Assembly (NCBI GenBank): GCA_044892505.1 | Contig: CM097883.1 | Coordinates: forward strand, 183,644,001-183,708,000 | DNA: 64,000 nucleotides | Reading direction: 5' to 3' | Source of the DNA: Schmidtea nova | Taxonomy: Eukaryota | In this document: positions 103 to 54,123 of the stretch, piece after piece | Position numbering within the stretch: the stretch's first letter is position 1 | Layout: each line of letters begins with the position of its first letter | Position numbers and translations under genes: made by a program | Notes under the pieces: model-generated | The model's database searches: none | What the model saw: the letters and a program-made list of their open reading frames with translations, nothing else | What the model was told of the DNA's origin: nothing

Positions 103-3100
103 GTAAATTAACCAGGATAAATGATGAATATTGTTACCATTTAGATATCCAAACAAATGATGGTGACAGTCTATCCGGTCAAACTGCTCTTTGAGCAGGC
201 ACTGAATTTGGAAAATGATGTGCAAAATATTGATAATGCACTTATGAAAATCAGCAAATATAGGCAGACAAATCTCACAGATAAAAAGCACGATATTCTC
301 GTTTTTATAAGGTAAAATATTAAAATTTATCTATTCAATAAACTCAGTAAAATCAGATAATTTTCGATAATTAATTGAGAAATTTTTCAATTATTAATAT
401 GATTTATGAGGACGATTAATTTCTTGATCGAAAATGTTTTCTGAAGAATTAATTGCAGTTTTTTTCTCGTGCAATTTTATAAGCCGTTCAGCCTTCACTC
501 TGGAAATTTGAATAATTGTTTCATAAATTTTCGTTTTGCAATTGTAAATTTTGATTTTTAAAAATAAAGTAATATTTTAAATTTGGCTATTAATAATATT
601 CAATTAAGATTAATTTATATTCTTTAGAAGTCCTTAATATGCTTCACAATTGATGGAATATTTGCAATTTCTTTTCTCTTTATTTACAAATGAATTGAAA
701 TTATCGAAAAAAAAATGATGAAACGAAGAGAAAATAAAATTTATTGCTTTAATGAAATAAATTATATATAAATAAATTATATATATATGTGTGTGTGTGT
801 GTGTACGTGTCTTGATTTGGTATATCGTTTTACTTATAATGGTTGCAATGCCATAAACATTGGAAAGACTATACGTCATCTCTGTATACGAGTTCAAGAG
901 CATGCCACAAAAACTGGAAATAACAATATTATTGAGCATAATAAGACATAAAAGAAGAAAATTCAATTATAAAATATTGTATATGGGTTTTAAAATCTAT
1001 TATAAACGTATAAATTGTGAGGCTTTGAATATAAAATCATTTAATCATAAAATAAATATTCAAAATTTAATCCCTATGTGCATTTCAGAGGCTTTAAATT
1101 ATTTTACTAGGATTATTAAAAGTCTAATTTGATTTTAAAATTTGATTATGTGTTTGCTATTAAATCTATAAATATGATCAGGTTTTTATTTGTTTCGAAC
1201 TTATTTATTATCTGAAGAAAACAACTGAGCTATTAAAAATATTTTTTTGAAAATGATGTTCTTTTATTTATTTGAATAACTTTCCATTATGATAACATTA
1301 CCTGGTCAGTCATTTTGACTGGCAAAACATTTATACTGATTCTTTCTATTTAAAAAAATACATTAGGGTAAATGAAGATTTAATCATCAACACTTGTCTA
1401 AATAAATAAATTTTGGAAATAGAATTTCCCAGCAGTTTTAATGTTAAAAATGCAACGAATACTTTATTTTGATTTTGAAAATTAACAAAAATTTAAAAAG
1501 GATGGTAGAATTTTTAGATTAACTTTATAAAGGGTATGGGAGCGTGTAATAAAGTATTATTATTTTATAAATGAATTTATTGAAATAATTTATTTTACGA
1601 AAATTTTCTTGAACTTCGAAATTTATATTTAGTGGTTTATCATTTTCTTACTATTCTGGAAGAACTTTCATGAAAGGAATGTGCCATTATAAGAAGTCAG
1701 TAGCGCTCATTACTGTAAGTATTAGAATTTTTACTTTTATTTTCTTTATTACTTTGAAAACATAATTTTTATAATTCTTTTCGTAATAGTTTTGAAACAA
1801 AAACTGGAGTCCTTGTTGCCATATAAATCAAATTTTTAAATTACTTCCAGTTTATTATTTATTTTTATTCTTTGAACAAGACCAACAATGTTGTGATATT
1901 GGCTGATAATGAAAATGACAATTGGACTGCATATTTATTTCACTCTTAAAATTTTATTTTATCAAAAAATGATATTTCTTATAGTATATAAATATTAAAG
2001 ATATAAGATGTAGATGATACCGTCCTTTTTACAAATGATGAAAACCCAACAATAACAGGCCATTTTAGAAGCGGGTGAGCTACACTTTCAGTGCTATAAC
2101 TGCCCACCCAGACCAGACCATTTTACTGTCATTAAATTGATTTAAACTTTATTTGAGAATACGATGCAAGTTATTTCCTCTCAAATTATGAAAACAACAG
2201 CTAAATACGTTTTGATTCTTTTCGATCTATTGCATTAGCCACATGCAGGGCCAATATATTTCCTTGTTCGATGATCGTGATCTCTGACCTTATCTGCAAT
2301 TTTATGTTTCATAAATTACAGTTTTCACGTGTACTGAATGAATATTTTTCATCCAATGTAAGTGGTATCATCGATTTTTCCCTCATTGATATTATGATGC
2401 TAAAAGGGTCGTGGTGGGAAAGAACAAAAGTCTGGCATATTATTTATTAGTAATATTACTAATAATACTAATAATACATTTACAAAATAATCAATACCAA
2501 CAAAACATCATTGAACGATTCGTTGAATTCCTAAACTACCAGCTGATTAAATCATTGACATTATTGGCATTATTGTGTGTACCTTTTATTANNNNNNNNN
2601 NNNNNNNNNNNNNNNNNNNNNNNNNNNNNNNNNNNNNNNNNNNNNNNNNNNNNNNNNNNNNNNNNNNNNNNNNNNNNNNNNNNNNNNNNNNNNNNNNNNN
2701 NNNNNNNNNNNNNNNNNNNNNNNNNNNNNNNNNNNNNNNNNNNNNNNNNNNNNNNNNNNNNNNNNNNNTATTATTTATGGACACATTCCAAATTCTATTA
2801 AGATAAAGTATGAGAGAGAAACAATAAAAATTAATTAATTAATTAAAAAACAAGATAAACAACTAATTAAAAATAAATAAAAATAAATATTAAATAAATA
2901 TCATAATTATTTTTTTGTTTCACTTTTGATCTTTTTTTAATAATAATATCAATAATTTCCATAATGGTAAGACTATAGATTAAAATTTCTTTTTTAAACG
3001 AGTACAAAAGTTTTCGGCACAGCCTTTATCAAATGTGACACACTTGATAGAGGCTGTGCCGAAAAATTGTGTACTTGTTTAAAAAAGAAATTTTAATCTT

Positions 3101-6100
3101 GTTGGATCCACCATTTGGTCAACAGTTAGATGTAAAAATAATAATAATAAGAAATAAATAGGAACAAATTAATATGAATATAATTACGAGAAATATCAGT
3201 AAAAACGAATTAAAAGTAATAAAAAATATTAATTTAATATCAAAAATTAGAAGAAAGTAAATGGAAAATATAAATGTTAAAGAAAAAATAATATTTAAAG
3301 CAAAATAAATAAGTAATAAAGAAAAAAAGAATTAATAAAATTCTTAAACCAAAACAAGAAAAGTTAACAATTTACAACAAAATCAATCGATTTTAGCTTT
3401 AATAAAATTTATTATTTGATGATCAGCTTCAACTTTGATCTGATCAGTATATATACTGATGCAGATCCAGACAAATTGAATGCTTATATGCTTATATGCT
3501 TATATGCTTTTATGACTTTAAGATTTGAAAATAATCATTAGGTATGAGTATTTTGTTTTTTTTTATTGTATGATTTTATCATTATGATTTTCTGACATTG
3601 CCATTGTGGTTATTTGCATTAAATTAATAAAATTTTTGAATATATTTTATTTTCTTTGAGATTTATTAAGCTTCTTCCACTGTGTAATCGGTGGAAGGAG
3701 ACGAAGGTATTCATATGTGTATTTATATTTTATTGAGCTTCTTCCACCGTGTAATCGGTGGAAGGAGACAACATTATTATATTATATTAACAATTAGGTA
3801 CAAGTATATTTTTTTTTGAGCAATTTTTGGTCGAGCTTCTTCCACTGTGTAAACGGTGGAAGGAGGCGAATTTATATTATATAGAGTAGTTATAGTAGAT
3901 ATACGTATGATTCAAGGGGCTCCGATCACCGTGAAATCGGTGAAATGGAGGCATACTGTGCCGAGTAGAATGACTGCTCCGTACAGTTAGGCCGTCCCAC
4001 TGGTGTAAAGGCGCCGCAAGGAGAGTAGGAATTTTTACTAACCATGATCACTAATAATTTTTATCACTGGATAGTATAACCAGTTGAAGTTTTATGTTAT
4101 AATAGAGTTGATTCTTATGAGTTTGAGTTGAGTTTGATTTTATTTTTGAGTCTAGAATAGATGCGATTATTATTGGTCAAATTTCACAATTGGATTAATA
4201 GAATGTTACCCTATTTTTCGATTGTCACATCTGGGGTTTGTGGGCATAAAGCGGCAGATACAACGTCTAGGAAATCATACAAAATACACCGTTAAATACT
4301 ATAATATCAAAAATCGATAACTTGAATAGCGTAGTGATCTACCACGCAAGTAGCATAGCACCAATAGGCTATAGGATCAAATATTCAACACATATAATTA
4401 ATATAATTGATTATCCTGAACCCTGTACATAGGGCAGTGGATCTTAGTTAATTTAAATAATTTCTTATCCTGATTGCTGTATGTAGCACAGGCATGAATA
4501 AATAAAATATATTATGAAACAAAGGTATCTGATCGCTGTATATAGCGACAGTGTTAAACGACAGAATGTGTTTTCATTTCTCTTCCTAGTTAAAATATGA
4601 AATCTGTAAAAATTCGGATCCAATCAAATTTATATTAATGGATAACTTTGATTCACAGAAAATGGCTAATACTCAAGCAGAATTGGACAAGGCGTGGCGC
4701 ATTATCCGCAGCCTCGAAAAGGAAATGTTGCGAAAATCCGAAAAAATAAAAGAGGCCGATGTTCTGATCTCAAATTTAAAGAAAAGCTGGTTCAGTCCAG
4801 ATCAAATGAAAGCGCAAATCCTCAAAACTCAACGCTCACAGCGAGCAAACAGCGAAATACAGATGGAACTGGATGCGACCAAGATGGAGCTGAAGAAATG
4901 CCTAAAATCTGTGACAGCTTCCTATCTCAATCAAGAGTTAAGGCAACTCATCAGACCAATTACCTATCAGCATTGGGCTGACGAGAAAGCAGGATGTTCA
5001 AAGGGAACGAACACAGATGAACCATCTCAGGTTCGAACAATAACAGTAGCAACCACACCAAAGAGCACGACCAATCCAGAAGGTAAAAAGAAGAAGAAGA
5101 GTAAGATGGGCGCGCGTCAGCGTCGCTGGAAGAAGCAAGTGCTCCAGCAATTGACACAACATTCGAAAGAAGTGCCCGAGATTGATCTAACAAGGGATTT
5201 TGCAATAACGGATGAAGACATCATTAAATATTTTGAATGATGACTTGAAAATTTTTAGTGTTATTAAATTGTGTATAAAAATTTAGTTTTGATTATAATT
5301 TTTGTTTTGTATTTATTTTAGTGTAAAGTATATGAAAATAATGTGATTTATTAAAAATTTAAAATAGTTTAAATGAAAATATAGATTATAATTAACAATA
5401 GGATTGACATAAAAATAATGAATAATAAGAGCATTAAAGAGATAACATATTGTAATTGATTAAAAATTATTTGTTGATATTGTAAAGAAAAGGGCTGAAA
5501 GAAAAGTTGAGAATTGAAATAAATTGTAAAGAAAGGGGGCTAAAAGAAACATTGAAATGAAAGATAATGAATGCGGATAGAGTAAAGTAAAGCGTAAGTC
5601 CTTCTATCGGCAGCGAGACGAACCCGTGAACATAAATGGGGAGTAGTTTTAGCAATAGAGCTCACCTGCCCATCATTGTTCAAACACCTTGCCCATTTCC
5701 AACTCGATTATTACTGGGAAATGATCGAGGGTGCTCGTGTGATATGTAAGCATTTTATGTTAGGTCTTGGATGGAGGAATCCCTAGAGCGTTTAATTCAT
5801 ATTTTATATTTTTGTTTTAACCCATCCAAAAACCACAACAATCTATAGTCTTACCATTATGGAAATTATTGATATTAATATTAAATAAATAAATAATAAT
5901 AAAAATGATGAATAGAAATAAATAATATTAAATAGTTAATTAATTAAAAAATTATTAAAAATATCTTTTAGCTACTGTCTTTAAATAAATAGTAAGAAGG
6001 GTACCAAAAAGTGGGTCTGTGTGCTTACATTTCACTGCTAATAAATCTAAAAAATAATTCTAATAAATTATCACTATTACTAAAAAACCAATAATAAATG

Positions 6101-12100: not shown

Positions 12101-15100
12101 ATTTAATTATGACATTAATTTAATAATTCAATTATTAATGTATATTGAATGAACTTTTTATCTTTTGGTTTTAAATAAGCAAAAAATAGACTTTTTCACT
12201 TTCAAAAAAACTAACATGACGAACATGCTCCAAAAATAATTTACAATTATAAAATCAAAATGAAAAAAAAATTCAATGAAATGTTTTCAAATCCAAATTT
12301 GGCTACAAATCAGAGATCTACAGAATTATCGAGTGAAAAAAACTATCTGAATCCAATACTAATAATTATAAACTATCAGATTGTGTCAGTAACAATCATA
12401 AATCATTGAATACCGATTGATTTTGAGTGGCTGCAATATGAATCAGAATAATGAGTTTTCCGATGTCGGCTTTATGGATGATAATCAGACCCAGCAATCG
12501 TTTATCCATGGTGAAACCAAAAAGCAATTCAACCAAAAACCATCAAATCCCAAACACAATACGTGTAATGTTCAAACAATGTCAAATCCCGGCACAATTA
12601 ATCAAAATCAACTGGTTAGGCTGTCAAAGATTAGCGATTACGAAAACCAATGATTGTAGATTGGAATATAATGTATTTCGTTCTTAATCTTTTTCTACAA
12701 GGCAATCTTTAATTTTTTTTGCAATACTGAAAATGATCTTTCACTTTCACATATATAAATATAGTACAGATGTCAGGGCCAGTCTATGGTTTGGTGACTG
12801 TGAAACCCTTAATTGGACTCTAGTTTTTATCAGTTATCATATTAAAAATTGGTAAAACAAACCATTCAGAATTTAAATAATTGAAGTTTCGAATGACAAG
12901 TCTTATAAACAAAAGGATGTAGGATATATTTTCTTAATTATTTCACCAAAATTAATTTGAATTTTGTTTATAATTTTCATTTATCTTGTATGTTAAAGTT
13001 AATACTATTAGAAAAATTTGAAAAAAACTTATATTTACTTTTTAAAATTAATAACAAAAATAATTAAAATTTTTTAAACTATTCATTAATAATTTCCAAA
13101 AAATTAATTCAGAGCATAATTTTATGTTCATTTGCATTCTCTCAATGGCATTTGGCCATTGTTTGACTTAATTTACTTAAAATTTTATTCAGGAAGTAAA
13201 TAAATATTATACACGCAGATGAACTTTTTGTTTATTTTTATAATTATTATATTAATTTTTCATAGGATGAATTATTTTTTAAAAATTAATAATTTTTCGG
13301 GTGATTAATGATGACGCGTTTTTTTATAATTGTCATTGTTCAAAAATTTAAGTTTTAATCTGGATCAAATTTAAAAATTTCTTTTTTTTCAATTTTTTAG
13401 GACTATGGATCAGTGCTTCTCAACCTTTTTTCTTCCATAAATCTGCAATACACTGTAGGCAAAATTTTAAAATACTAGGCATAAAGTGAAAAAATAAATG
13501 ATATTTATTAAATTATAATTATTTGAAATATTGTAACAGAAAACTAATGAGATACTAGTTCTTGCTTCAATGAACACCAAAGTTTAATATAACGTTTGTT
13601 GTTTTAGAGAAATCTGATGTTTTTTAAAAAATGAGTTTAATTATTATGATTTTTTATTAATTTTATTAAAACTTATTTCTCATATAAGTTTGAGAATGTT
13701 GAAGCAATTCTTTTATGGCCTCTTTAAATATCGTAGTGTTTCATTTAAAACTGAAATCCAAAACACATTTTATGAAATTTCTCAGAATTTTTACTGAGAA
13801 TTTTGCGTTGAGAAAAAAATTCTATTTTAAAAAGAATGTTTATTAAAATTTATTAATGTTGAGGTTTTAATTATTTGAAATCTCAACTTTCACTGGTGTC
13901 CTAAATAAATAACTAAGACAAGTAAAATTTAACGGGAATATTTTATTTAATAACAAAATATTCTTTTCAAGAATTATTTAATCACACAAAATTTTTATAG
14001 TTTTCAATAATACAATTTCAATGTATGTAGGGTAGAGTGTCCCTTATTTTTCGAGTTTCGAATATCTAACCTCTCACCCTTTCAGTGTAGTCCTCTATGA
14101 AAAAAAAACTGTATGCAAAAAATTTGCCACAAAAAACTATTTTAAGGGTATGCGCAAACGAATTGAAAATTTCAATATGTTAAATGCGGTCTGAGCAGCC
14201 AATAATCTAACAAAAAACTGTACGGTTCATTTTACATTTTTTATATTGCTTTATATTTTCGACTGAATAGCAACGAACATAAGAAAAATATTGTGTTATT
14301 ATCATTTGGGCATATTTTACCAAATAGTGTTCTTGATGCACTTGGGAAACTTCTTGTGATGCTCACGTACGACCTGTAATGCAAACTGAGTCTGTTTCTC
14401 GTCCTCTGTCAGCAAGCCGCTGAATTCTTGAATCATAGCAATTCCTCTCTCTGCTGTGTCATTTGTGACTCTCAATTGTCGCACAATTTCTTCACCATAT
14501 AAATAATCTTCTCTTATGATCCATGTGATTGGATCAGCTTCCAAGAATGCCTCAGATAATGATAGCAATTTAAATATCTTCAAAGAATTGCTAGTGACAA
14601 AATTGTGCAACTGTAGGGCAGGGATGTACTCTTTCTTAACCGTGATTCGTTTCTTGGTATTAGTTTTAGCTTTCTTTTGCAGTTCACCATGCTCTTCTTT
14701 TCCTCGACACACACTTCTCGATCAAATAACGCAAGAGCCACTAAATCTTCACTCAAGTACCAGAGATATCCGAGTAATTTATTGAGAGCACATTTTGATG
14801 CTACGGAATTGAGAATAGCCAGCTTCTTCAGCAGTTGTAAATCGTTAGAATGAGCCATTGAAAGAACTGAACACAACAACCACGATTTGACATACGCTTG
14901 CACCCCAAATAAGCACACTTCGGCCAATCCTTTCCTTTCGCATTCCGTAAGCTTAAGATTTGTGTCTCGGAACCGGAATATTTTGTAGGAATACAACAGC
15001 TTTGCCATAAACCGTGCGCGATGCAAAGCTCCAGGTTTGAGAAAATGAACTCCATGTGGTGGAACTCCGCCCAGGAAGATGATCACTAATTCAAGGAGTT

Positions 15101-18100
15101 CCATGTAGTCATAACGTGGCTGCACCTTTTGTAGTTGATTGGTGCCGAATTGAATCATCTCAGCTATGTCTCCTTGCAGCGCCATATGAACGCTTTGATC
15201 AGCAATGCCGGACTTGTAGGAGTTAACTTCAATGTTGGGCCAGAATGATTGAAATCGCTTAAAAAGAGGGATGTTGGGACCACTTGATGGACCCATTGAT
15301 TGAAGGAATACCTCTTCAAGCATTATCTCATGAATATGATGCTGACATGCAAGGTGAAGGACGTCACACTGTAGCATACTTTGAAACAGAACACAGGCTC
15401 CACTTTTCAGTCCAGTATTGCTCGCAGTCGTATCAAAACTTAGACCTTTGATGCGTTCCTGTAGACCCCATGAAGTCACTTATTTTACTAGAGCATTGGC
15501 AATTTCTTTACCTGTACCATTTGACAGTTTGAGAATAAGAAGGAGCTGCTCAGTTCCTGAGCCTGAAACGATTATGGCAAGTCGGTCCGCATTCTGCTCT
15601 CCTGTCACATCTTTCAGTATTTTGCCATCGAAATGAAGAACCAGTGGTTTTTAGGATCAAAAATTTTTTTCACGTGAGCTGTCGTGACAGAACGATGCAT
15701 GAGTCGAGCATGATGAATTGAAGATCGATTTATGTTTAACTCAGCTACATCTCTTGCAGATGCTTGGACAGCTGCTGACAGATTGTGAACAGCCAAACGG
15801 ATGCTCGTTTTTGTGCGATCAAGAGATGACAAAACTTCAGGCGTCAACACAGTTCGCCTGCCTCTTTTACACTTCCGAGGGGTTTGACTTCCATTGCCAT
15901 TTCGAGATATGGAATCTGAAGTGTCTTCTTTATTGGATTTAGTCTCGCTTGAAGAAATAGCTGCCTTGAGTTGTGATGAATTACACTCTTCTTTCTGTTT
16001 TCTTTCAAATTTTAATCGTTTCTCTTGTTTTGCAGTAGCTTTCTTTTCTTTCCATGCTAGAGACGTATCCACACCAGCCATTGAACCAATTCGTCCTTTT
16101 TCTCTTTGAGCTAACAGAAACAGTCGATTTTCTTCAATTTTAATTAATACCAAGGCGTCTTCGTGAGCAATATCAAAGAGGTCAGCGAATGTCTGCTTCA
16201 GCCCGTCTTCATTTGCAGTTTGTGTTGTAGATTGGCCTCCTTTGCTTTTCTTGAGATTTTCCCACCTCGTCATTTTTTTTCAAGCTGTTTAACGGCATGG
16301 TGACGTGGTCTCACTGGAATCCGTGCTCTATTACAAAACTCCTCCATTTTAATTATTGTTTGTAGCGCAGCATCATGTTTACTTTCAGCACAGGTCTGCA
16401 GTTTGTGCAGGTAGACACCCATTACATCACCAATGGAAGGCAATTTAGCTCCAGCAAGACTTTCCTTTATTAATCCAAGTAGATACACATTTGCATTACT
16501 TTTCGTAATACAATTCATACTAAAGCAATAAGGAAATATAAATAATGCAATTAACATGGTTTGGTAATTAAAAATGAACTGTAAGCACTTATACCTACTC
16601 CGTATTAGAAAAAAGATAGCTCTCAGAGTATTTAAATTTGCACAAAATTTATAAAAAATTAAAACAACTTGCGCATTAGAGCCTTTTTGTGCTTCTCGAT
16701 TTTAAATATTTCACAGTATTCACCGTTGAAATCTACTTTTGATTCTCAATATTTTAATCGCGATTTGTTGGCGATTTTCATACTTTTGCCTTTTTTATAC
16801 TAAAATTGTCTGTGGTAACTATAGTAAATTTATTATTTTAAATATTTATATAACCTATTTCATTTATCTACATATATTAATATATTAATATTTCTATGAT
16901 TTGACTTATTTTGTAATGTAAATATTTATTTGATTTATTTTCTGCTATAACATTAAATTTTTCTTTTAAAGATATTCGTAACACTAATTATTAAATGAAT
17001 GACTACAAGGTAATAATAATAAATTATTAATTAATAACTACAGGCTAATGATTATTGATTTATACAGTATTAAATAAAAAGTAACAGGATTAAAAGTAAT
17101 CACAAAATATTAATTGTTGAAATGACTGTCATGAAAATACGACTGTTTGAGACAATCAATCACACATAACTGAAAACAGTGACTGCTATGGAGCTGCCAC
17201 GTACGATGCTTGTTGGTTTGAATTGATTGAGGTTTGATTGATTGTTATTGAAAAAATGACGGATTGTTAATTTCACAGAACGGAAGAGAAATGATTAATT
17301 TGATTTATATTGATTGATTATTTGCTTTGCGGGTATATGTTTACTGTGTATTTATTGGACCCTGTCCTATAATATTTTGAGATTATGAATGTGTCGATGT
17401 GACTACCCTCATCATCCAACATTAGTATTGAAATATGTGTCAACCCCTATGAGAACCAGTTAAGTCATTCAATTTGCTTTTCTGAGATTTAATCAGATTA
17501 TTAACTTTTTCTATTATTTCAATTATTTTTATTGTTATTAGATCTATTCCGGTGATGTGGTCAAATTGTTCGGTTCAAGCTTTAAGTAATTTTAACAATA
17601 CAGGAATAGATATTTGTTTAAATGATTTTCCTGACTTGTCAGAGTATAGAATGATAGATATAGGAAAGAATTGTAAAGAAATAAACCCACAATCCGATGC
17701 ATTTTGCGGTTTGAAAAAGAAAGTAATAAATATTAAAATGTATTAAATTATAGACTACACGCATCTTTAAATTTCTTTCAGAATTGGAATTTAGTTCCAT
17801 CAATTTTTGAGCATTGCTGTAACATTTCCTTCTGTACGCTTATGGCAACGTCGCAATGTTCATCTGGAGATTGTTGTGATCCTATCACCTGCAAATATCT
17901 TTCATCGGACAATATTTGTAGAGCTTCAACAAATGAATGTGATTTGACTGAATATTGCACTGGAAATAAAAATGAATGTCCACCAGATAAATCTCTTGAT
18001 AACGGATCTAGCTGTCACAATAATGAAGTCTGTTTGAAAAATACTTAATTGCATAAAATATTTGGTATAGGGTTATTGTTTCAAAGGGAATTGTGGTTCT

Positions 18101-21100
18101 GCTAATTCAGCATGTCAACTTTTGTTTGGAATGGATTTCCAATCAGCGAGAGAAGAGTGCTATTTTGAAAATATGAAAGGCACTTCATTTCAAGGACATT
18201 GTGGATATAGACCAAATATCACTAAGTCTTATATTGAATTGGAATATCAGTACTCTTATTGTTCACGCAAGTTGGTTATATTTCATTTATTACAAATAAA
18301 TTTTCAAAGTTTCGTAACAAAAAGAGCATTTTTCATAAATAATACAAAAATAATATAATATCATTTTCAGTGAGGTGCTCAGAAACCTCCATGCGGAAAT
18401 CAAAAAAATGTGAAATCCTCATATGACAGATTTATTTTTATTGCTTATCTTGTTAATATAATATGCAGACTATCTGCTTGAGGGGCTCGTAGTAATGGTG
18501 CACTTAGGGTGAAGGTTTTGGGTCTCAATCCCCCGTGGAAGGATTTGATCATAAAACCTTTAAAATTTGATAACTTTTACGAGTAGCATTTATTATAAAC
18601 TATAATAAGAAGCTCGGTGATTTTTTGACTCCCAATAATTCTGTAATTGAAGATAATGTAGTATTTCTAGAAGATAATGGATCCCGGAGCTTTAATTACA
18701 ATTATTTGAAGCCTTATGTATACGATAACAGAGTTTAAAACGTATTGAGAATAGAGTTCAATTGATCTTGAATCAAAGTGTTGAATCAAAAATATATTTA
18801 CTTTTTAACGTATTATTTGTGAAATGAGAAGATTATGTGACCTTTAACTCACAATGCTTAAGAAAAATGATCTTGCACTATATACCCTTATTCAATTTTG
18901 TTCTGACAGCTATATAAATAATATACTTTCATTTCATTATTTATCACTTTATAAATGAGTACAATGTTTACAATATCACTACAGTTTTACAGGCCGTCAT
19001 ATTGCCGGTCTAGCGTGGTGATTTTATTTTCAAAAAAGAAAAAATAATCCATCCAAAAAAGTGTTTATTTTTCAGTATGTGAGCCTCGTTACTTTTATTT
19101 GCAATTACATTGCACTCGGTTTCTTCTTTAGACAATAGACATAATATTCGTAAATTATATTCATTAAAACATATTATTCAAAAAATATTCATCAATAATA
19201 TTATTTGAAATATTTTTCTGAAGCATTGATAATTTTTATGAGCTTTGATTCAAACATTCTGTAATTCAACATACTGATTAAATTTTATATTTTCAATTTT
19301 ATTTATATTTTCAATTTTATTTTATATTTGAAATTAAAATTTTAAACTCTCATTTTTTGAATTTCATAAAGTTTTATAAACTTAATTTTTAAATCAATAT
19401 TTATTAAACTTATTTTATCAAATTTTTAAATATTTATATTAACACCTCACATCCCCCTTTTTTAAATCTTTCATCTTTTCGATATTTTATATCATGGTTT
19501 TGTCTTCTTCACCTCCTAAGAAATAGCTTCTTTCGTGAATTTTCTTTATTATTGTATATGGTCCTTCAAATTTTTCCTGGTCTTTATTTCGAATCTCACC
19601 CTTTATTAATACAGCCTCTCCTTTATTGAAATTTCTTATTGTTTTGATTTCTTTTGCGCTTGTTACTTCAATTTACTTGCTTTTTATCTTTCTTTCATTA
19701 TTTATTGAAGTACTGCTATACCATTTTGATCTGGTAATTCTCCTTACAAAAATTATTCCTGCCGGACTTGCTCCAATTGTTTTCTGTTTTGTCGCATTTT
19801 AGGTATATTCAATTTCCTGTAATATCTCTCCAAATTATTTTTGCTTTGTTATCTTAAAGACTCGTTAATATAATCACAGATTGTGCGAAACTGTCTTTCT
19901 ATTAATCCATTGGTGTTATGGTGATATGGATTTGAAAACACTATTTCGATTCCTGTTGACTTGGCCAATTCTTTTATATTGTTTGACTCAAAACATTTCC
20001 CACAGTCTACATACAGTTCTTTCGGTGCTCTTTATATCCATTTGTTTAGCAAAGTTTTCAATATTGTTTTTTCATCTTGTTTAGCTCTAACAGACAGAGA
20101 AATGTATTTACTGTAATGTTCAGTGATACCACATATGTATCTTTTTCTATTGATTGTTTCCTTCATTGGTTCACATATATCCATAATGATCATCTCACTG
20201 AATGCTGCTGAAAAATCACCATCTTCAATTCGCACATTCTCATTTGACTGATCCAATCTCTCAGCCACACACGATACATCTGCAATACCTGGAAAAGATA
20301 CATCAGTCTTGTCAATTTCATGACCTCCCAGCATCCCTATTACGTCCATTCCTAAGATCATATAAACATTTACCGGTAGATTCATCAACGAGAAACAATC
20401 ATCACTCAATAATTTACCATCAACAATCAGTTGAACGTTCACATCACACATACATCTGACTAGTGATCCATCCGCAGTCATGATACTCCCATTCCTTATA
20501 AATCGTTTCTTCGCAATTCTGGCTGACACGACTGATTTGGAACATCCCGAGTCGATCAATGCTTTCACGGACTCCCCATTGATCATGACAGAAATAAACT
20601 GCAACGCCATTATGTTCGTGCTGGAGTAGACGCTGGCGCATGCGTTACTCCTTTTCCATTTCCCGACTCTGAATTTTTGGTGCACTCCTTTGCAATGTAG
20701 CCCTCTTCTTCACATCGCCAACACTTCTTTCTTTGTTTCTTAAAGCAAATTTCTTCTAAATGGCCATTCTTTCCGCAATATAAACATTTCTTTTGCTTGT
20801 CTTGTTTTCCCACAACAGCCAAACATAGTTCCATAGTGTCGCAGTTTACTAAAACACGGGACTGTTTCAAAACATCAACAAGAGACATCTGCTGAATCTT
20901 GGCATTGGATCGTAACTGTTGTGACGTTGCTGTTGGCAAACCCATAATGAATGCGCTTTTAATTAAAATCTCATTATCTATCTTGGCCAATGATGCTAAG
21001 TTTTTGAGATCATTCAAATATACATCGACTGGCTCATTGCTCTACGGAAGTTATATTGAATGTTTACGTTGTTTAAATATTCAGAGTTGGCAGAATTATT

Positions 21101-24100
21101 TAATTTAATAAAGTTTTAATATTGTAATCTTATTTTATTATTATTCATTGGTTTTAGATTTTATATATAACAATAAAAATATAACATGGCGTCACGAACT
21201 GAAAAAGAATACTTGCAGGAATACTTATTTAAAGATAAGTTATCAAAATTAATTATATTCAAGAAGCGAGGAACCAACGTTAAAATTGAAGATCATTTAA
21301 TTCTTTTCAAAAGTTTTGTTGATCAGTTTGCCAAACACAACTTGGTAACGGAGGAAGAAAAAATTAAAGTATTTTTAAAATACTTTGACGAAGAAATAGT
21401 TAAAGAGATCGAATGCTTAGGAGATATTAGCACAACTAGGACCATAGACTGGTACGAAGAAAAGATTCTAAAAATCGTAGAGATTAAAAGGTCAAAGACC
21501 TCAATAATTATAGATATTCTCGGCGACACCAGACAAGAAAGAGATGAGACTGTAGTAGATTTTGCAAAAAGAGTAAGGATGCGATGCCTAAGTTACGAAG
21601 GAGAAAAAGAAAAAATGATGATACATACCTTTATAGAAGGTTTGAGAAACCAAACTCTTTCGGTAGCCTTGAAGATCAGAGAGCCAAAAACGTTAGAAGA
21701 AGCTATAAAAGAGATAAAAATGGAGCATGTTGGCGTAAAAGTAAAAGAAGACGAGTATAATTAAGTTAGAAAACTGGCGACAACGGACGAAGGGACAATA
21801 AATATCTTAAAAAGAGAAATTGATAGGTTGAACAAGAATATTGAAGAATTGAGGAAGGAACAATTGAGAAAACCGAATAAAAATCCGAGAGAAGTAAGAG
21901 AAGACATTTCTTCCTATCAGCAAAACGTTACATGTTTTAAATGTAACAAGGAAGGGTATATAGCGAGATTTTGCCTTAAAAAAGATGACAGTGGAAACAT
22001 TGATACAAGGACGTGCTATAAGTGCGGAAAAAGGGGACATATAGCAGCAAATTGCAAAATTGGTACAAATAGGATGAATGTGATTAAATGTTACGAATGC
22101 GGTGGTGGTCATTTGGCTAGATATTGTGACAAGAGAAATAAATTCAGATATTTCCAAGAAGAAGATGGAGAGGAAGAGGATGGTTCAGCGAGAGGATCAA
22201 AAACCGATTCTGAAGATGACAAGCATATAAATAATATAACAGAAGTAAGATCTGATAAAGGGACGAAGAGACCAAATGAAAATTTAGAAGAAAAATATGC
22301 AAATTATATAAACGGTGAAGGGGAAAAACCAAAGAAACTGTTACAAAAATACCAGTCTACAGTTATCTCTAGTAGCAGGCCGGAAAAAGCGAGGAATAAA
22401 CCAATAACTGAATGTTATATTGGACATCAGATGGTTAAAGTTATGTTTGATACGGGTGCAGATTTAAATGTTATTAGCCAGGAGTTGACAGATAAACTAA
22501 TAAACGCAAATCCAACCATAAAGGTGTATAATTCAAAAACAAGAGTTACATGTGCCTATTGGAAGCTCAATCGAATGTGCAGGTAAAATCCAGCTAAACA
22601 TAGCAATAGGACAGATTGTGACAAGTCATGTATTTGACATTATGCCAAATATATTCCCACATGTTTATATCGGGATAAGAAGTATGAAGAAATATGGAAT
22701 TATCAATAATGCACCAGAAGACTGCATAGAGATCCAAGGAATTAGGTTGCCATTCTTATCAAAAACTATTCCAGCGGCTTCTTTAAACGAATCCCAACTG
22801 TATTAGAGAGTCGTAATACGGTTAAAGGGAGAGAAGAGGCTTGGGGGGACGGTTATCAGGATTATTATAGAGTTATTGTATCAAGTAACGTACAGATTTA
22901 AACAGTCGTAGAGTATTTTATCAGAGGAATGGCAATAGATAAGCAGAACAAGAGATTAAAGAATCTTAATCAAAGTTGTGTGTTTAATGGTGAAAGAGTC
23001 AAAATGGCAGAGAGAAATTTTGATAAGTGATTACGTGCTTAAAGTTGATGAAGGATATGTATTAGTAAAAATTGATAAGATGGAAGGCGGTATTAAACAA
23101 TTGCATGTAGGAACCACTTTAGGTTACAAAGAAAGATTTTACGATAAAATGGCAGAAAAGGCTAATATTGGAAGTATGTCATCATTAGAACAGCGAAGAG
23201 AAATCACGACCATCGATAAAATATTACGAAGCATAGAAGATTCTTTAGATCATTCTATTAAATATAGCGAAAGAAAGGAGTTAGTGAAAACAATAGAAGA
23301 AAATAAGGATGTTTTTAGTAAATATAAAATGGATATTGGGAAAAGTACATCACTATCTCATGAAATTGACACTGGGAACGCTCGGCCAATTGCTTTTAAA
23401 CCGAGGAAGGTACCATTAGGTCTGGAGGAAGAGGTTGACCACATGGTACAAGATTTATTAAGAGCTGGAATTGTGAGACCGAGCAAGTCAGCGTGGAATT
23501 TTCCGATTGTGGTTGTTAGGAAAACGAATGGTGATATTAGAATGTGCGTCGATTATAGGGCACTGAACGCAAAGACGGCAAGACCAATCTTTCCAATACC
23601 AGCTGCGGAAGATCTTTTTGATACACTTGGAGGAGCAAAGTTTTTCTCTACATTAGATCTATCAAGTGGTTACTACCAAGTACCAATAAAAGAAGGTGAC
23701 ATAGAGAAGACAGCTTTTAGCACAAAGTATGGACAATTCGAATTTACACGAATGCCATTTGGATTATGTTCCGCGCCGGCCACTTTTCAAAAGCTTATGA
23801 ACATGGTCTTGAGAAATGAAAATTGGATTAAGTGTGTCGTATATTTGGATGATGTTCTTATATTTGGGAGAACCATCGAAGAATATAATCAAAGATTGAA
23901 CACTGTATTACGCCGAATTAAAGAGTCAGGACTGAAATTATCACCAGCTAAGTGTTCATTTTTAAAAACAGAAGTTAATTATTTAGGACATGTCATCAAT
24001 GAGAATTGGGTAAAAACTGACCCAGAGAAAATTGAGAGTATACGATCATGGAAAATGCCAACATGTAAAAAAGAATTGCAGACCTTCTTAGGATTTTGCA

Positions 24101-27100
24101 ATTATTACCGTAGATTTATAAAAATTTATGCAGCGACATCAGAAAAATTGAGTTCAATGTTAAAGAGTGAAAATAATTTTGTGTGGAATGAAGATAGAAA
24201 AGGAGCATTTTACGAACTTAAAAGCAGACTGTCAACGCCACCAGTGTTGGCCTTGCCAAATAAGGAAGGCGAATATATACTGGACACAGACGCTTCGCAC
24301 AATAGTATGGGAGCCGTTTTGTCACAGAGACAAAATGGAGAAGAAAGAGTTTTGTGTTATGCATCAAAAACCATGAGTAAGAGTCAGAGAAAATATTGTA
24401 TAACAAGAAAAGAACTATTGACAATATATACGTTTGTGCTGAAATTTAAACATTATTTGATGGGATCAAAGTTTTTAGTGAGAACGGACCACCAAGCGCT
24501 GAAATGGTTATTGAAATGGGATAATCCAAACACATCACAATACTGTGTTTGGAGAGCCGAACTAGAAGTCTACGACATGGTTGTCGAATATAGAAAGGGC
24601 GAAGAACACATAAGTGCTGATGCGATGTCCAGGTTACCTCCATGTGAACAATGCTTACTTAAGCATAAAGAACCGATGAAGCGTCGAAACGTAAAAGTAT
24701 ACGATGAATTAATAGATGTAAAAAGGACAGGAAACGACGATCTAGAATCAGAAAGGGTTTTGTGCGAACTGAAAGTACATGAACATGATTGGGGACAAGA
24801 CGATGATGTCGACATACAAACCATAATTAAAAGGATGAAACGTTCAGATTCTGAAAATGACAGAAACGTAGAAGAGATAAGAAGAGGTAGCAAAGAATTA
24901 CAAACAATATGGGCACACAGAAAAAAACTAAGGATCAGGGGCGATCTACTTTATATCCAGGAAGATAAAGAATACAGATTGATACTCCCGAAATTAAAGA
25001 GGAAAGAATTAATAATACAATTCCACAGTTTTCTAGGACATCCCGGAATCGAAAAAACCTATCGAATAATAAAGAATGAATATTATTGGCTTAATATGGA
25101 GTCTGATATATCAGAAGTAATAGGAAAATGTCAAGAATGCGCACACAACAAAAATAGAAACGGTAGAATAAGGGCACCATTTCAAAGCATAATTGGAGAA
25201 AAACCTTTTCAGATAATAGCAATGGACATAACAGGACCGTTCAAAACAACACAGAAAGGGTTTAGGTATATACTGGGTATAATCGATTACTTTTCGAAAT
25301 ATATAAGTTTAATACCAATGAGAAATATCGAGACAGAGAATATTCCAGAAGCGGTGTGGTCGCAGTGGATTTCAAAATTTGGAGCACCAGAACAAATACA
25401 TTCAGATTGTAGAAGTAATTTTCAATCAAGATTGTTTGCCGAATACTGTAAAATATTAGGAATTAGGAAGACTTTTACCTCACCTTACTACCCACAGAGT
25501 GATGGACTGGTAGAACGACTATTTGGAACTGCAAAAAGTATGATTGCAGCAGTGTTAGAAGAGAAGAAGAGCAAAGACTGGAGTGTAGTATTACCAGTAA
25601 TAGAGTTTGGATTAAGAACTACAATACAAAAATCAACGAATTATTCACCATATGAAATAGTATTTGGAAATCAAGCAAGATTACCCATATCAGCAATAAA
25701 GGTTAATACGAGACATTTTCAAGACTATGACGATTACGTCCAACAGCTGCAACTAAATTTATCAGATATTCACAAGAAAGTACGAGAAAATATGGATAGA
25801 CAAAGAGAGTGTATCGTCGCAAGATATAATCAGAATCGATGGCACAAAGAATTGATAGTAGGAGATAAGGTAATGATAAAGAATGAAGACAGGAGGGGTT
25901 TCGAGAAGAAGTATATAGGGCCATTCATAATAGAAGAAATAATGGATAAATGGACCTATGTGTTATATAGTGACAAAGCTAAAAAAAGAATAAGAAGAAA
26001 TTATAATCAAATAAAAGTAGTAAATGACGAGGGAGATTCTTGTAGAGTAAAGCCAACCAACACTAGTATTTGGTCAAGGGAACCGAAGACCAATTTAAAA
26101 CCGACGAGAAGATACCCATTACGGACGACGAGAAATCAGAAACCTAAGTACCGTTCGGTTGCCAGCGAGGGGATGTGATATAATTAATGAATTAATTATA
26201 TGCATAAGTTATATTGAATGTTTACGTTGTTTAAATATTCAGAGTTGGCAGAATTATTTAATTTAATAAAGTTTTAATATTGTAATCTTATTTTATTATT
26301 ATTCATTGGTTTTAGATTTCATATATAACAATAAAAATATTACAGTCATATGCTTGGAACATATCTATGGAATAGACATCGATCAGGGCATGTTCGATCT
26401 TCAATGCGTTGCCCTTGTCTTCCGCACTCAAATGCTGATATACTGCGAAAGCTGGTCTATCTAGGTATAACGGAATAATTGATTCTAAATCCACGATTTT
26501 CTGAATTTTTGCCACTAGCTTCACTTTCTGAATCCACTGTTGAACGTCACCTTCTCCTCTGAAAATAGGGATCATATTGTTCATATCAAATTATTCTCCA
26601 TTCAATCTACCAAAATGATTTCACTATCCAAATCTTGACAAAAACTACACTGCTTAGTTTTTGTAACTCTTTCATTTTTTAAAAACTAAATAGAAATTTC
26701 AAATATTTTATATGAAAAACAGATGAGATGACTCAAGTTTTGATTGATTTCAGGTCTACAATTTTTCTGTTTAGATGAAATTCATTGTTATACTATTTTA
26801 TTTTTCTTTTAACGATTTTATCGACCTTCCTTCTTCACGATTGTTTCTTTACTTAATTTCGGTAAATTTAAGGTTCGTTGAATAATCGTTTTTTTCAGTG
26901 CTATCTTCATTGATTTATTTATCCATCGTACTCAACTAAGCGACCCATAAATACAATATTATTCAAGTTATTTAGAGATAAATTACTATTTATAGTGTCA
27001 GTAATTATTTAATTACTATTTTGANNNNNNNNNNNNNNNNNNNNNNNNNNNNNNNNNNNNNNNNNNNNNNNNNNNNNNNNNNNNNNNNNNNNNNNNNNNN

Positions 27101-34105: not shown

Positions 34106-34446
34106 TTAGATTTATATTATCAATCATGTTAATGAAATCTTAAGTAAAGTTTTTGCGTTTGATAAATGCTAGAAAATCGCAGAAACTAAAAAAACAAAGA
34201 AATTTGGAGAAAAAACCAATTGCAAAGAATAGTTATAAACAACCGAAAAAATTAATTATGGATAATATTTCGCAGAATAATCGCATTAAAAATACTTTAA
34301 AACCAAAACAAATACATCATCGTAGTTTCCCATTTTTTACTTAAAGCCCCAAGTATTAGAAGAATGAGTATTTTACAATCATTTCCTAATTACGTTATTG
34401 ATGATTTATTAGTAGGGGAAAGTGAGCGCACAGCCCCACTTTTTTT

Positions 34447-34905
34447 CAACTAGCAACGGTTGCTAGGGTAAATACACACATCAAGATATTCCTCAATTCA
34501 GGTGATGCCAGGGTGAACGTGCACACACATCAATATATATATATATATATATATATTCCCCGATGAACCTGTTGCCAGGGTAAACACACACACATCAAAA
34601 TATTCCTCGAGACAGGTATTGCTAAGGTAAGCACACACATTACTATATAATCACCGGGGAGATGTTGCTAAGGTAAATACACACATCAAGATATTCCTCA
34701 ATGCAGGTGTTGCTAGGGTAAACACACATCAATATATATTCACCGAGGATCCTGTTGCCAGGGTTAACACACACATCAATATATTCCTCGAGGCAGTTAT
34801 TGCTAAGGTAAGCACACACATTAATATATAATTACCGGGAAGATATTGCTAGGGTAAATACGCACATTAAAGTGTAGTGCATTGGAATCTGTTGCTAAGA
34901 TAAAC
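34447..34905. repeat. Subterminal tandem array (~45-50-bp units, GTTGCTAGGGTAAAYACACACATCAA), left arm
   Basis: About ten diverged units; mirrored, with extra units, at ~43735-44390. Confidence 0.9.
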
Positions 34906-41252: not shown

Positions 41253-41283
<31 letters not shown>

Positions 41284-41292
41284 TCAATATTA

Positions 41293-41327
<35 letters not shown>

Positions 41328-50009: not shown

Positions 50010-52051
50010 TGTTGGATCCACCATTTGGTCCACATTTAACATAAAAATAATAATAAGAAGAAATAAATAAGACTAAATTAAAATTAATATAATTGCGAGA
50101 AATTTCAGTAAAAACGAATTAAAAGTAATAAAAGATATGAAGAATATTGAAAAATTAGAAGAAATAGAATTGAAACTGTCAAAACTGTTAAGGAAAATGA
50201 TATTTAATTATATTTAAATAATAAGAAAGTGAAAAAAATAAGTAATAAAGAAAAAGAATTAATAAAATTTCTGTAAATTAAAACAAGAAAATGAAAATCA
50301 TATTTGTTGATAAAATTGATTTTATTTTTAATAAAATTACATTGATGACCATCAGATTGATGCTGATTGGTCAATGAACTGATCTGGTCAGTATAAATAC
50401 TGATCCAGATTCAGATTAAATTAATGATTTAAGTGTTTGAATTTTGACATAAATTTTGAGTTTATGCTTCAGAAGAATTTTTGTTTTCAAGAAAATTTAT
50501 AAAGGTATGCAGTTTGATATTTTTATTGTTATTGTTATATAATTCTATTACGATTTTTCTGTCATTGCATTAATTCATTTAATAAAATTTTATGAATAAT
50601 TCTAGTTATATTTTTTTTAATTTTTATTTGTTCAAGCTTCTTCCACTGTGTAATCGGTGGAAGGAGACAAGGGTATTAGATTATTTATATTATTCAGGAT
50701 TATATTTTGGTCGAGCTTCTTTCACTGTGTAATCGGTGGAAGGAGGCGAATTTATATTATATATTGTATTTAAGTATAGATATGTATTATTATGCAAGGG
50801 GGCTCCTGAACATCGTGAAATCGATGAAAGGAGGCATACTGTGCCGAGTAGAAGACTGCTCCGTACAGTTAGGCCGCCCAACTGGTATAAAGTGCCACTA
50901 GGAAGGTAGGATTTTACTAACCATAAATGCTAACATTTTTTATCACTGGATAGTATAACCAGTTGAAGTTTGATTTTGAGATACTAATTGATTTGATTAT
51001 TATCGAGTTTACTTCACCTTTGGATTAACAGAATGTTACCCTATTTTTACGATTGTCACATCTGGGGTTTGTTGGCATAAAGCGGCTGATATAAAGTCTA
51101 GAAATAAATATAAAATACACCTTTGAACGAAATAATACAAGAAATCGATAACTTTAATAGCGTAGTTCAGTGATCTACCACACAAATAGAGCATCAGCAA
51201 TGGATCAAATATTCAACACAGATAATTCATAATGAAATGTAATATATTATCCTGAACCCTGTACATAGGGCAGTAGATCTTAGTTATTTTTAATAATTTA
51301 TTATCCTGAGTGCTGTACATAGCACCGGCGTGAATAAATGAAATAAATTATCAAATGAATGTATCTGATCGCTGTACATAGCGACAGTGTTGAAAATATA
51401 ATATGTATATTATTTCTTTTCCTAAATTAGAAATTAATAATCGTAGAAATTATGAGAATTATTCAACCAAAAACCAAGTTCATATTGATAAACCATCTTG
51501 AATTCTAGAAAAATGTCAATCAAATCAGTAACTCTTAAATCAGAATTAGACAAGGCTTGGCGTATTATCCGCAGCCTTGAGAAGGAGATATCGAATAAAT
51601 CCGAAAGAATAAAAGAAGCCGACATCACCATAGCGAAGTTACAGAAGAGCTGGTTTAGCCCAGACCAAATGAAGGCACAACTCCTCAAGAATCAACGCTC
51701 TCGACAAGCGAATGATAATATAAAATGGAGCTAGAAGCAACAAAAATGGAGTTGAAAAAATGCTTAAAATCGGTAACGGCTTCTTACCTCAATCAAGAGT
51801 TGAAACAGCTCATACGTCCTATCACGTATCAGCATTGGTCTGAAGAGAAGTCAGGCTGTTCGAAAGGGACAAATACGGATGAACCATCTCAGGTTCGAGT
51901 AATCCCAGTACAAACTACACCAAAAAGCATAGAAAATCCGGAGGTTAAAAAGAAGAAAAACAAGATGGGCGCACGTCAGCGTCGTTGGAAAAAGCAAGTC
52001 CTACAACAATTGATACATCATTCAAAAGAAATACCGGAAATCGACTTAACT
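50010..52051 (+). mobile_element. Second, diverged LTR-A copy, 3'-truncated
   Basis: Same TGTTGGATCCACCATTTGGTC start, hairpin arrays and ORF; homology ends at a junction with the Tigger ORF. Confidence 0.88.
51498..52051 (+). pseudogene. LTR-A ORF copy 2 (1-nt frameshift at ~51722; runs in frame into the transposase start)
   Basis: ELDKAWRIIRSLEKE...KMGARQRRWKKQVLQQL. Confidence 0.85.
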
Positions 52052-54123
52052 ATGCCTGTTAACTATGCCTGTTCTATGATGCCTGTTAAGAAAAAAAGAA
52101 AATGTATTTCATTAGAAACCAAAATTAAAATTTTAAACCGTATTGAAAATGGAGGGTTCTACGAGCCTTGGTAAAAGTTTTGATGTGAATGAAGCTACGA
52201 TACGCACTATAAAGAGAAATGAAAGTATTATCCGAAGATCTGTGATGGACGGAACTAAACTATCTTCCAAGTACTCCTCATATACAAGATGTAGCGTTAT
52301 GGAAAAAACAGAAAAGGCATTGGCTGTATGGATAGAAGACAACAACCAAAAACGAGTTCCATTGGATGGAAATACAATCAAGCAGAAAGCATTACATATA
52401 TATGCCAAGATTGAACAATTGCAACCATCTAATTCAACGCAGGCCAAGAAAACTGTTTTTTCTGCAAGTACAGGATGGCTAAGAGCATTTCTAAACAGAA
52501 ACTCGCTTCATAACGTGCAAATTAAGGGCGAAATTGGCTCAGCCAACGAGAAATCTGCTAAAGAATTCCCCGAAAAGTTAGCCAGAATAATTGAAAAAGG
52601 TGGATACACTCCAGACCAAGTTTTTAATGCAGATGAAACTGGTCTTTTTTGGAAGAAAATGCCAAAAAGAACATATGTGGCTAGATCTGAAAAAGTCGCC
52701 AGTGGATTTAAAGCAGCTAAAGAACGTATTACTTTATTATTTTGCAGCAATGCTTCAGGGGATCGGCAGTTAAAACCTCTATTTATTAATAAAACTTTTA
52801 AACCACGTGCAATGAAAAATAAAAACGTAAAAACCTTGCCTGTTCATTGGATGGCCAATAACAAAGCATGGGTAACATCATTACTTTTTACAGAATGGTT
52901 CAATACGTGTTTTATTCCAGAAGTTAAAGTGTATATGGAAGAAAAAGGTTTGGAATTCAAAATTCTTTTGCTTATAGATAATGCTCCCGGACATCCACAT
53001 TTAGAACACCCAAATGAAAAAATTGTATTTTTGCCACCTAATACAACGTCTTTATTACAACCACAAGATCAAGGTATAATTGCCACGTTTAAAACCAATT
53101 ATTTAAAACAATCATTTCAATATATTTTGGATAAACTAGAAAATGACAGAGCAATAACAGTTATTGATGCCTGGAAGAAGTTTTCAATTATGGATTGTGT
53201 AAAATTTGTAAATATTGCAGTACATGAATTAAAACCATCAACTTTAAATGCGTGTTGGAAAGCGGTTTGGTCAGATTGTGTCAAAGATAAAAATTGCGTG
53301 CCTCCAATTTCAACCGAATATTCCAACATTATAAATTTATCAATGGCAGTTGGTGGATTAGGGTTTGAAGATTTGGCTTTTGAAGATATTGAAGAAGTCA
53401 TACTAGATCCAGTTATTAGCGATGAGTCATTAATAGAAGTTGCTCTAGAGGGTACTGATTGCCGAGAAAAAAGTGGAATTGTGACGTCTGCTCCTCTTAG
53501 TGCCGGTTTAATTATAGAAGGATTGCAATTGGCAGAAAAGTTGGAAAATATTTTTATTGAAAACGATCCCAATTTTGAGCGAGGTTTGAAATTCCAAAAA
53601 GATCTGAAATTCTGTATGGCTCGTTATAAAGAATTATTGAAAGACATAAACAAGAGCGTACCTAATAATACGTCAACAGCAAAAAATTCTCGTGACTCGT
53701 GCACTTCATTGACTTCACAGCTTCTGTATGAAAATACAGAACCTAATATTTCGAGCGAGGAATCTGAATGTGAAATCAATTTTAAACCAGTCTCAAGAAA
53801 GCGCATACGTATTTCTTCAGACACTGACAGTGATTAAAAGATTATTTTTTGTTAAATTGTTAATTATAAATTTATTTTTTCGTAATGTCTATACATATAT
53901 ACATTGAATATGTTTATTTTTCTAAACTATTGTTATTAAATAAAAAAATTTCTTAATTCTGCTGTTATTGAATCTAATCTACGAAAATGCTTTTTATATT
54001 TGTTAGTAATTTTTTTACATTATTTTTAACACGGTTTTTTTTACACGATTTATTTAAATTTACACGGTTTTTTTACACGATTTTTTTACACGGTACCTAT
54101 CCAACGTGTAAAAGAAGACTTAG

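Follow-up and report, generated by a model that had tools for sequence, protein, structure and literature searches.

A genuine, selected array of RNA hairpins lies within an unusually long, protein-coding LTR in the 64,000-nucleotide stretch of Schmidtea nova DNA that was analysed in this study (hereafter the window). Seven hairpins are present in the 64 kb, four at 3671-3943 and three at 50637-50826, and they occur only in the two copies of this LTR, which also encodes a conserved basic protein. The sequence itself shows the LTR and its hairpins, the conservation and strand bias of the latter, and the selection on the open reading frame (ORF). The best explanation that we can offer, plausible though tentative, is that the array and the LTR-borne protein constitute a Rev/RRE-like switch that protects or routes unspliced RNA. 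The initial annotation of this locus, which had recognised the hairpins as a possible multivalent protein-binding RNA array, did not recognise that a predicted intron holds the array, nor that a three-way junction and a second array accompany it; these are described below together with the features compiled in Table 1.

Table 1. Coordinates of the features of the array-bearing LTR and its surroundings (positions within the window).
Feature	Position	Strand	Description
Palindromic MITE-like host repeat, insertion target	2932..3099	.	resumes 5841-5889
Left target-site duplication ATCT	3096..3099	+	right copy 5841-5844
Solo LTR copy 1	3100..5840	+	2,741 bp, termini TGTTG...CAACA
Palindrome centred on TATA-like motif (3448)	3437..3467	+	candidate promoter, motif only; copy 2 ~50377-50413
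Predicted splice donor AG|GTATG	3540..3546 (donor 3542)	+	copy 2 at 50503
AATAAA kept in both copies	3626..3631	+	candidate poly(A) signal; copy 2 at 50581
Hairpin unit 1	3671..3700	+	12 bp, loop UGUAAU
Hairpin unit 2	3738..3767	+	12 bp, loop UGUAAU
Hairpin unit 3	3831..3870	+	12-13 bp, loop UGUAAA, purine-rich internal loop, 3-bp lower stem
Three-way junction, unit 4 as one arm	3916..3998	+	predicted fold in both copies
Hairpin unit 4	3926-3943	+	loop UGAAAU, arm of three-way junction
Small hairpin past junction	4001..4016	+	one compensatory change between copies
TACTAAC, branch-point-like	4036..4042	+	copy 2 at 50915
32 nt identical in both copies	4061..4092	+	5-bp hairpin, AG (4073-4074) in loop
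Second array, three hairpins NN-CUG-UAYR-UAG-NN	4413..4555	+	cores 4423, 4477, 4536
Predicted acceptor YAG before ATG (4662)	4657..4664 (acceptor 4658)	+	copy 2 AG at 51507
LTR-borne ORF, 192 aa from conserved ATG	4662..5240	+	predicted: two long helices joined by a linker to a basic helix
Basic motif, 11 K/R in 17 residues	5085..5135	+	P0001 166-182
LTR copy 2	50010..52055	+	71-75% identical to copy 1; 3' part lost
Copy-2 array	50637..50880	+	long units 50637-50666, 50716-50745; junction 50799-50880

We read copy 1 as the solo LTR of an LTR retroelement. Its TGTTG...CAACA termini provide the TG...CA ends and the short inverted repeat expected of an LTR and agree with the TGTTRNR...YNYAACA integrase-recognition consensus given in the available portion of PMC3601003. 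It is flanked by a short target-site duplication, and contigs from four of four sequencing runs join approximately 3083-3093 to 5841, representing the empty site. Copy 2 opens at 50010 with the same 21 bases and breaks off at a junction with a pogo/Tigger element; at 51719-52174 the C-terminal piece of the copy-2 ORF stands in frame with the N-terminal part of a pogo/Tigger transposase, and the short ATGCCTGTT repeats between the two probably mark a deletion junction. A Ginger or other TIR DNA transposon was considered and rejected, since such elements possess extended terminal inverted repeats and a transposase, whereas the terminal symmetry here is just 5 bp and the ORF is without a transposase domain in Pfam. 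No internal gag-pol region of the array-bearing element was found within the 64-kb window, and a separate gypsy-type element at 21048-26344, which carries 139-bp direct repeats that are 98.6% identical together with gag, protease, RT, RNase H and integrase domains, has no similarity to the 2.7-kb LTR.

Contigs from the sequencing runs also span several hairpin units while departing from the window at many positions (28 letters differ over 3672-3850 in one example), so that the multi-unit layout is present in diverged copies too. Among the 15 contig joints listed of 130, none is a splice joint, although contigs of this kind do not bear on expression. Most of the run contigs differ from the window at 5522 and 5582, within 3' poly(A)-like hexamers, and the contig depth at 5615-5709, a stretch perhaps common to related families, is far above that of the array; depth is greater in hairpin bins than in spacer bins, a hint only, as depth cannot rank parts. 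The 3' end of copy 1 (5560-5840) is structured and GC-richer, a block of ~46 nt is duplicated before it (5478-5560), and the MITE-like target (2932-3099 and 5841-5889) is covered by many run contigs. Elsewhere, Pfam identifies gypsy and Tigger elements and an exon with a metalloprotease-like motif is discernible by eye, surroundings that suggest an animal genome rich in AT. A large foldback-like inverted repeat at 34400-44400 has AT-rich low-complexity arms, many N gaps and outer ends with tandem units of 45-55 nt; a short-chain dehydrogenase open frame of 291 aa (49072-49947, - strand) faces copy 2 in head-to-head orientation, 63 bp away from the start of that LTR; and several adjacent open frames of 40% GC at 14317-16701 (- strand), without a convincing Pfam match, look by eye like a decayed DNA transposase.

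The hairpin units, four of which belong to copy 1 and three to copy 2, lie where they were annotated initially, with loops starting at 3683, 3750, 3848 and 3932 and at 50649, 50728 and 50816, respectively, and with the loop sequence UGUAAU in four units, UGAAAU in two and UGUAAA in one. The 12-bp stem that had been attributed to the units holds for the five long ones, where 60 of 60 cells are paired (50 Watson-Crick and 10 G.U), but not for unit 4, the core of which comprises only 5-6 bp. The G.U pairs do occupy fixed stem positions, one being present in 5/5 long units, a second in 4/5 and a third in 1/5, and all 10 non-Watson-Crick cells of the long stems are G.U pairs as opposed to mismatches, which favours RNA over DNA. 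Two-sided pair changes are absent from the long units. Units 1-3 fold at a z of about -6 on the + strand, the - strand being 3-11 kcal/mol worse, and copy 1 contains three stems that reach 12 bp or more and include 6 or more G-C pairs, whereas none arose in any of 200 dinucleotide shuffles.

A covariance model built from the seven units, as had been advised, and here scanned over the 64 kb, recovered its own seven units by construction and no further credible unit, its three extra matches being two reverse-strand echoes and one at chance level. Rfam returned no match at gathering score over the same 64 kb (three were at chance level, E 2.7-8.5), and hammerhead, HDV-like and twister ribozymes are unsupported both by eye and by Rfam. 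A prokaryotic repeat-spacer (CRISPR-like) array was likewise rejected in view of the unit spacing of 67, 98 and 84 nt, the related spacers and the animal-type gypsy/Tigger context. The spacers had previously been described as unrelated, a description that must be withdrawn as the motif TTATATTAT recurs behind four of the five long units, at 3777, 3872, 50685 and 50752. This motif is complementary, with one G.U, to the loop of the invariant, candidate-acceptor hairpin at 4071-4079 (50950-50958 in copy 2), matches of this type occurring four times in the 49 kb outside the LTRs; the resulting 13-bp helix is predicted with a probability of 0.65 in copy 2 and is not predicted in copy 1.

Unit 4 forms one arm of a three-way junction, the helices of which have predicted pair probabilities >0.9 in both copies. 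The eight tool-predicted helices of 3916-4084 comprise 41 pairs, of which 35 are unchanged, two altered on one side, three altered on both sides and one broken, so that the junction and the helices that follow it keep 40 of the 41 pairs between copies; the corresponding count of 11 G.U against 0 A.C is partly circular, since the helices were drawn from + strand folds. The compensatory change noted initially in unit 4 (C-G to U-A) is indeed present, although on its own it is not significant, as 76 of 500 shuffles reach that level; covariation counts are small because only two copies are readable in full. Two further helices are predicted to enclose the copy-1 array, 3711-3726/3895-3910 (16 bp, probability 0.97) and 3645-3658/4017-4030 (14 bp, 0.9), and neither is predicted in copy 2.

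Comparison of the two copies bears out the view that the units are conserved while the spacers drift: the units are 95-97% identical, whereas two array spacers are 63% and 78% identical. Identity amounts to 88% in the junction region, 100% at 4061-4092 and 89% in the second array, and to just 31% at the synonymous sites of the ORF. The first 320 bp of the LTR are 80% identical and may be constrained too, or the copies may be mosaic, a history that may inflate some of these identities. The fine interleaving of conserved units with drifting spacers argues for selection on the sequence of the units, beyond shape alone, which in turn suggests a sequence-reading partner. The proposal of a multivalent protein-binding RNA array is supported in part, with regard to RNA-level structure and the LTR setting; protein binding is what we would best infer from the near-invariant repeated sequence.

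Departures from symmetry in the long stems amount to 10 cells at three positions; read on the + strand, each of the 10 is G.T, and A.C never appears inside the stem. The CpG of the 5' arm has decayed in four of the seven units, leaving a G.U pair, as against none of seven for that of the 3' arm. After correction for G+T skew, using 173 background windows as reference, the asymmetry is modest (z -0.3 to -2.7) with the same sign in seven of seven windows. An RNA-level function on the + strand is, in our estimation, highly probable. A position upstream of the transcription start site had been put forward as evidence against an RNA array; however, U3, which lies upstream of that site, is nonetheless transcribed by way of the 3' LTR, and such a position would place the array at the opposite RNA end without refuting it. 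Whatever the U3/R/U5 layout, the array would stand at one end of the genomic RNA or at both.

Both hairpin arrays, the junction and the TACTAAC box are all situated between the predicted donor and the predicted acceptor. AGGTATG has two matches on the + strand of the 64 kb, one per copy and in the homologous place, while TACTAAC has three, two of them in the LTR copies, and a YAG 3-5 nt ahead of the ATG is kept in both copies (4657, 51507), although this acceptor was chosen by position from among the 32 AG dinucleotides aligned between the copies there. The AG at 4073-4074 is a candidate alternative or decoy acceptor. The splice sites and the promoter are predicted as motif calls, the TATA-like motif lying ~95-115 nt upstream of the predicted donor and ~220 nt upstream of the array start in both copies. 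The conserved AATAAA follows the donor by ~80 nt and precedes the array by 45-56 nt, and as a poly(A) signal it is weak because this hexamer has a background of 3.5 per kb. If the motif calls are correct, the RNA modules would leave the ORF mRNA by splicing and stay in the unspliced RNA.

The second array, which in copy 2 spans 51249-51391 with cores at 51259, 51313 and 51372, is paired in 30 of 30 cells, and two of its five pairs show two-sided changes, a result reached by one of 500 shuffles; these changes stem from three paralogues in two copies and do not amount to six independent events. Judged by energy it folds about equally on both strands. Its loops hold self-complementary hexamers of the UGUACA or UAUAUA type, and five of its six units carry UGUA(C/U)AUA.

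The LTR-borne ORF is under strong purifying selection, with a dN/dS of 0.063 (bootstrap range 0.035-0.125, based on 792 of 1000 replicates, those for which the correction was defined) over 173 codon pairs, three gapped or broken codons being skipped, and with a pS of 0.69 and a pN of 0.11; the copy-2 ORF is frameshifted near 51720. The 17-residue stretch across the basic motif is identical in both copies, and the tail of the protein displays an arginine-containing nuclear-localisation pattern, so that the basic arginine-containing RNA-binding/nuclear-localisation motif typical of Rev, Rex and Rec is present at the level of a motif. The leucine-rich export-signal pattern, strict or relaxed, is absent from the protein of either copy, the relaxed pattern being one that occurs in 1505 of 2000 shuffles.

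Single-sequence structure modelling (mean pLDDT 67, pTM 0.24) placed a C-terminal helix behind two long ones, from which it is separated by a linker modelled at low confidence. Residues 25-135, when modelled as a parallel in-register homodimer, scored 0.54 as compared to 0.00 for the best of three controls, with a contact agreement of at least 94% and a pLDDT of at least 83. The mark applied to dimers was attained in microbes by 21 of 30 solved pairs but by 0 of 23 single chains, and in eukaryotes by 17 of 29 solved pairs but by 0 of 30 single chains; of the eukaryotic dimers without an older solved relative, only one of seven attained it, and generic coiled coils may do so through memorisation by the predictor. 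The protein is predicted on this basis to be a coiled-coil dimer with a basic tail.

Homology searches in Pfam matched none of the Rev, Rex and Tat families (one sub-threshold match was unrelated); further searches gave a best E of 0.11 among PDB sequences, no viral fold at E 0.001 or better, and, among 1.84 billion representatives examined with HMMER, a single match (E 9e-4) to a repetitive, unrelated-looking sequence. Scans for related loci gave 91 viral and 401 metagenome pattern matches, not one of which was confirmed, and the unit pattern had no match in viral and metagenome contigs. In a protein atlas the top score of 0.90 fell to a 213-aa hypothetical cluster, which is a lead only, the C-terminal half having no usable match. 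As the homologue collections are mostly prokaryotic or viral, these blanks do not show novelty. The protein is not a Rev family member, given that neither homology nor an export signal was found.

Transcription, splicing, binding and the step that is controlled are what we infer in proposing the following Rev/RRE-like scheme. The array would be a cis-acting RNA element of an invertebrate LTR retroelement, located inside the predicted intron. Early RNA would be spliced from the donor at 3542 to the acceptor at 4658 with the loss of all hairpins, and the spliced RNA would be translated into the LTR-borne protein, which would dimerise via its long parallel coiled coil and thereby present two basic tails that may bind hairpins of the GNRA-like kind (U-GNRA-U). 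With three or four hairpins occupied by several dimers, a multivalent complex would arise that is capable of holding back splicing or nuclear retention, so that unspliced RNA would be routed onward. The whole would act as a feedback switch, the simplest reading that uses all of the parts. We counted in its favour the pairing and conservation of the hairpins and of the junction, the selection on the ORF with its identical basic stretch, the predicted homodimer, the precedents of CERV and boxB, the homologous placement of the rare donor AGGTATG and of TACTAAC and the retention of the YAG before the ATG. We counted against it the absence of an export-signal pattern and of a Rev/Rex/Tat match, the differences between copies in the RRE-like long-range helices, the modest strand asymmetry, the small covariation counts, the possible mosaic history, the low yield of the dimer mark among eukaryotic dimers without an older relative, and the fact that splice sites and promoter are motif calls. 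More doubtfully, the LTR as a whole may be a self-contained regulatory cassette that holds a promoter, an intron with two hairpin arrays and the gene for a hairpin-binding coiled-coil dimer; such a Rev-like or scaffold switch would have evolved independently, would dispense with an export signal and would resemble a natural counterpart of the MS2 array, and even solo LTRs could provide it in trans.

Two rivals, each rather unlikely in our judgement, use the same intron logic as the Rev/RRE-like switch, so that the sequence cannot separate them from it. Retroviral packaging signals are stem-loop clusters downstream of a donor, and the stem-loops behind the major donor could accordingly mark unspliced RNA for the Gag nucleocapsid, the hexamers in the second-array loops allowing two genomes to pair. 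Such a packaging or dimerisation signal would follow the same placement logic, with the array in unspliced RNA only, and is consistent with the two-sided changes in the second array; it would, however, assign no role to the basic LTR protein that is under selection, and it has to contend with long stems of almost invariant sequence and with unit loops that are A-rich and not G-rich.

The second of these rivals holds that host factors bind the hairpins, whether as an NXF1-type constitutive transport element (CTE), as a motor-adaptor localisation signal, or as a splicing/poly(A) module together with the donor, the AATAAA at 3626 and TACTAAC. A CTE has large internal loops, which the units are without; Rfam gave no gathering-score match and none below E 2.7, and AATAAA is a common hexamer here. 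Host factors would nonetheless suit an LTR protein that has no export signal and an array that begins close behind the conserved AATAAA, as well as the UGUA(C/U)AUA of the second array, which we take to be the Pumilio motif. Furthermore, CTEs are described in the accessible part of PMC10746203 as acting as repeated sites without a viral adaptor, and a donor upstream of the poly(A) signal would correspond to the foamy-virus layout outlined in the accessible part of PMC3694450.

A mechanism of the TAR/Tat or boxB/N type, whereby the protein would bind nascent-RNA hairpins near the promoter and promote elongation or poly(A) read-through, is improbable. The distance of the array from the TATA-like motif in both copies, the GNRA-like unit loops, which resemble those of boxB, and the nuclear-localisation pattern would accommodate it, whereas the promoter is itself a candidate motif and TAR sits at the very start of the RNA, with a donor preceding the array in the present case. 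Very unlikely indeed is the DNA enhancer palindrome that had been named as the alternative, in which each unit would pair two inverted half-sites recognised by a transcription factor acting as a dimer, perhaps the LTR protein. A primary sequence that hardly varies, a unit number that does, the predicted dimeric basic protein and a second array that folds alike on both strands would all be compatible with it, yet it is disfavoured by the one-sided G.T asymmetries and CpG decay described above, and by the position of unit 4 within a branched fold that shows two-sided changes, a feature for which double-stranded DNA has no need. There is least to be said for the view that the array arose neutrally, through tandem duplication and through template switches made by the reverse transcriptase, as the position-specific features of units 3 and 4 persist despite near-saturated synonymous divergence while adjacent spacers drift, even though unit number varies between copies and the spacers share a motif as duplication predicts.

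To our knowledge, little is known of how the intron-containing RNA of invertebrate LTR retrotransposons fares against nuclear quality control. In the LTR described here a candidate protein and a short, repeated and easily synthesised RNA target stand side by side, which makes this question directly testable. Should the Rev/RRE-like reading prove right, it would represent a convergent solution, solo LTRs could be protein-coding regulatory units, and the hairpin and its peptide might furnish a new orthogonal tethering pair. No such LTR is described in the full-text, mostly open-access literature that was searched, and the family may already figure in repeat catalogues.

Several known systems invite comparison. 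According to the available portion of PMC10746203, HIV-1 Rev/RRE, HTLV Rex/RxRE and HERV-K Rec/RcRE share an accessory protein made from spliced mRNA, a basic motif, multimerisation and a structured element in unspliced RNA, attributes that are predicted for the present LTR. The latter differs from them in being without a sequence family match or an export-signal pattern, in presenting a row of separate near-identical hairpins in place of the one long branched stem of the RRE, and in housing both gene and RNA element inside the LTR. The C. elegans gypsy element Cer1 encodes CERV, which is likewise the product of a spliced mRNA and is needed for the export of unspliced RNA; the likeness extends to the element itself, an LTR retrotransposon of an invertebrate, and to an accessory nuclear protein made by splicing, which is predicted in our case (PMC10309623, available portion). 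CERV, however, comprises 517 aa encoded by five exons that share frames with gag and the region before the 3' LTR, as against 192 aa from one exon inside the LTR here; its RNA target is still to be tested, and neither 'stem-loop' nor 'RRE' appears in the part of the CERV description that is available (PMC10309623).

The foamy virus LTR, in the accessible text of PMC3694450, has its splice donor upstream of the poly(A) signal, as is predicted here, although in the present LTR ~2.2 kb with the arrays and the ORF lie beyond the candidate poly(A) signal. Long LTRs of several kb are known from Ogre (1.9-6.5 kb) and Burro, and the available descriptions of these elements, by which alone the comparison is made, mention neither repeated hairpin arrays nor an LTR-borne RNA-binding gene (PMC6431247). 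A link to planarian Burro was not adopted, the descriptions in the accessible parts of PMC6431247 and PMC8532177 giving no basis for such an assignment. At the level of the hairpin itself, boxB penta- and hexaloops are GNRA-like and are bound by N peptides, and the phi21 hexaloop has a pyrimidine-pyrimidine flanking pair (PMC12550061, available portion). The likeness of the present units to the phage N peptide/boxB pair, namely hairpins with GNRA-like loops and an arginine-rich peptide reader, the latter being proposed in our case, is an analogy of shape only, as the phage system serves bacterial antitermination and has another loop sequence. Finally, MMTV sag and HIV nef are genes inside U3, and as such they overlap the LTR, as does the LTR-borne ORF described in this study.
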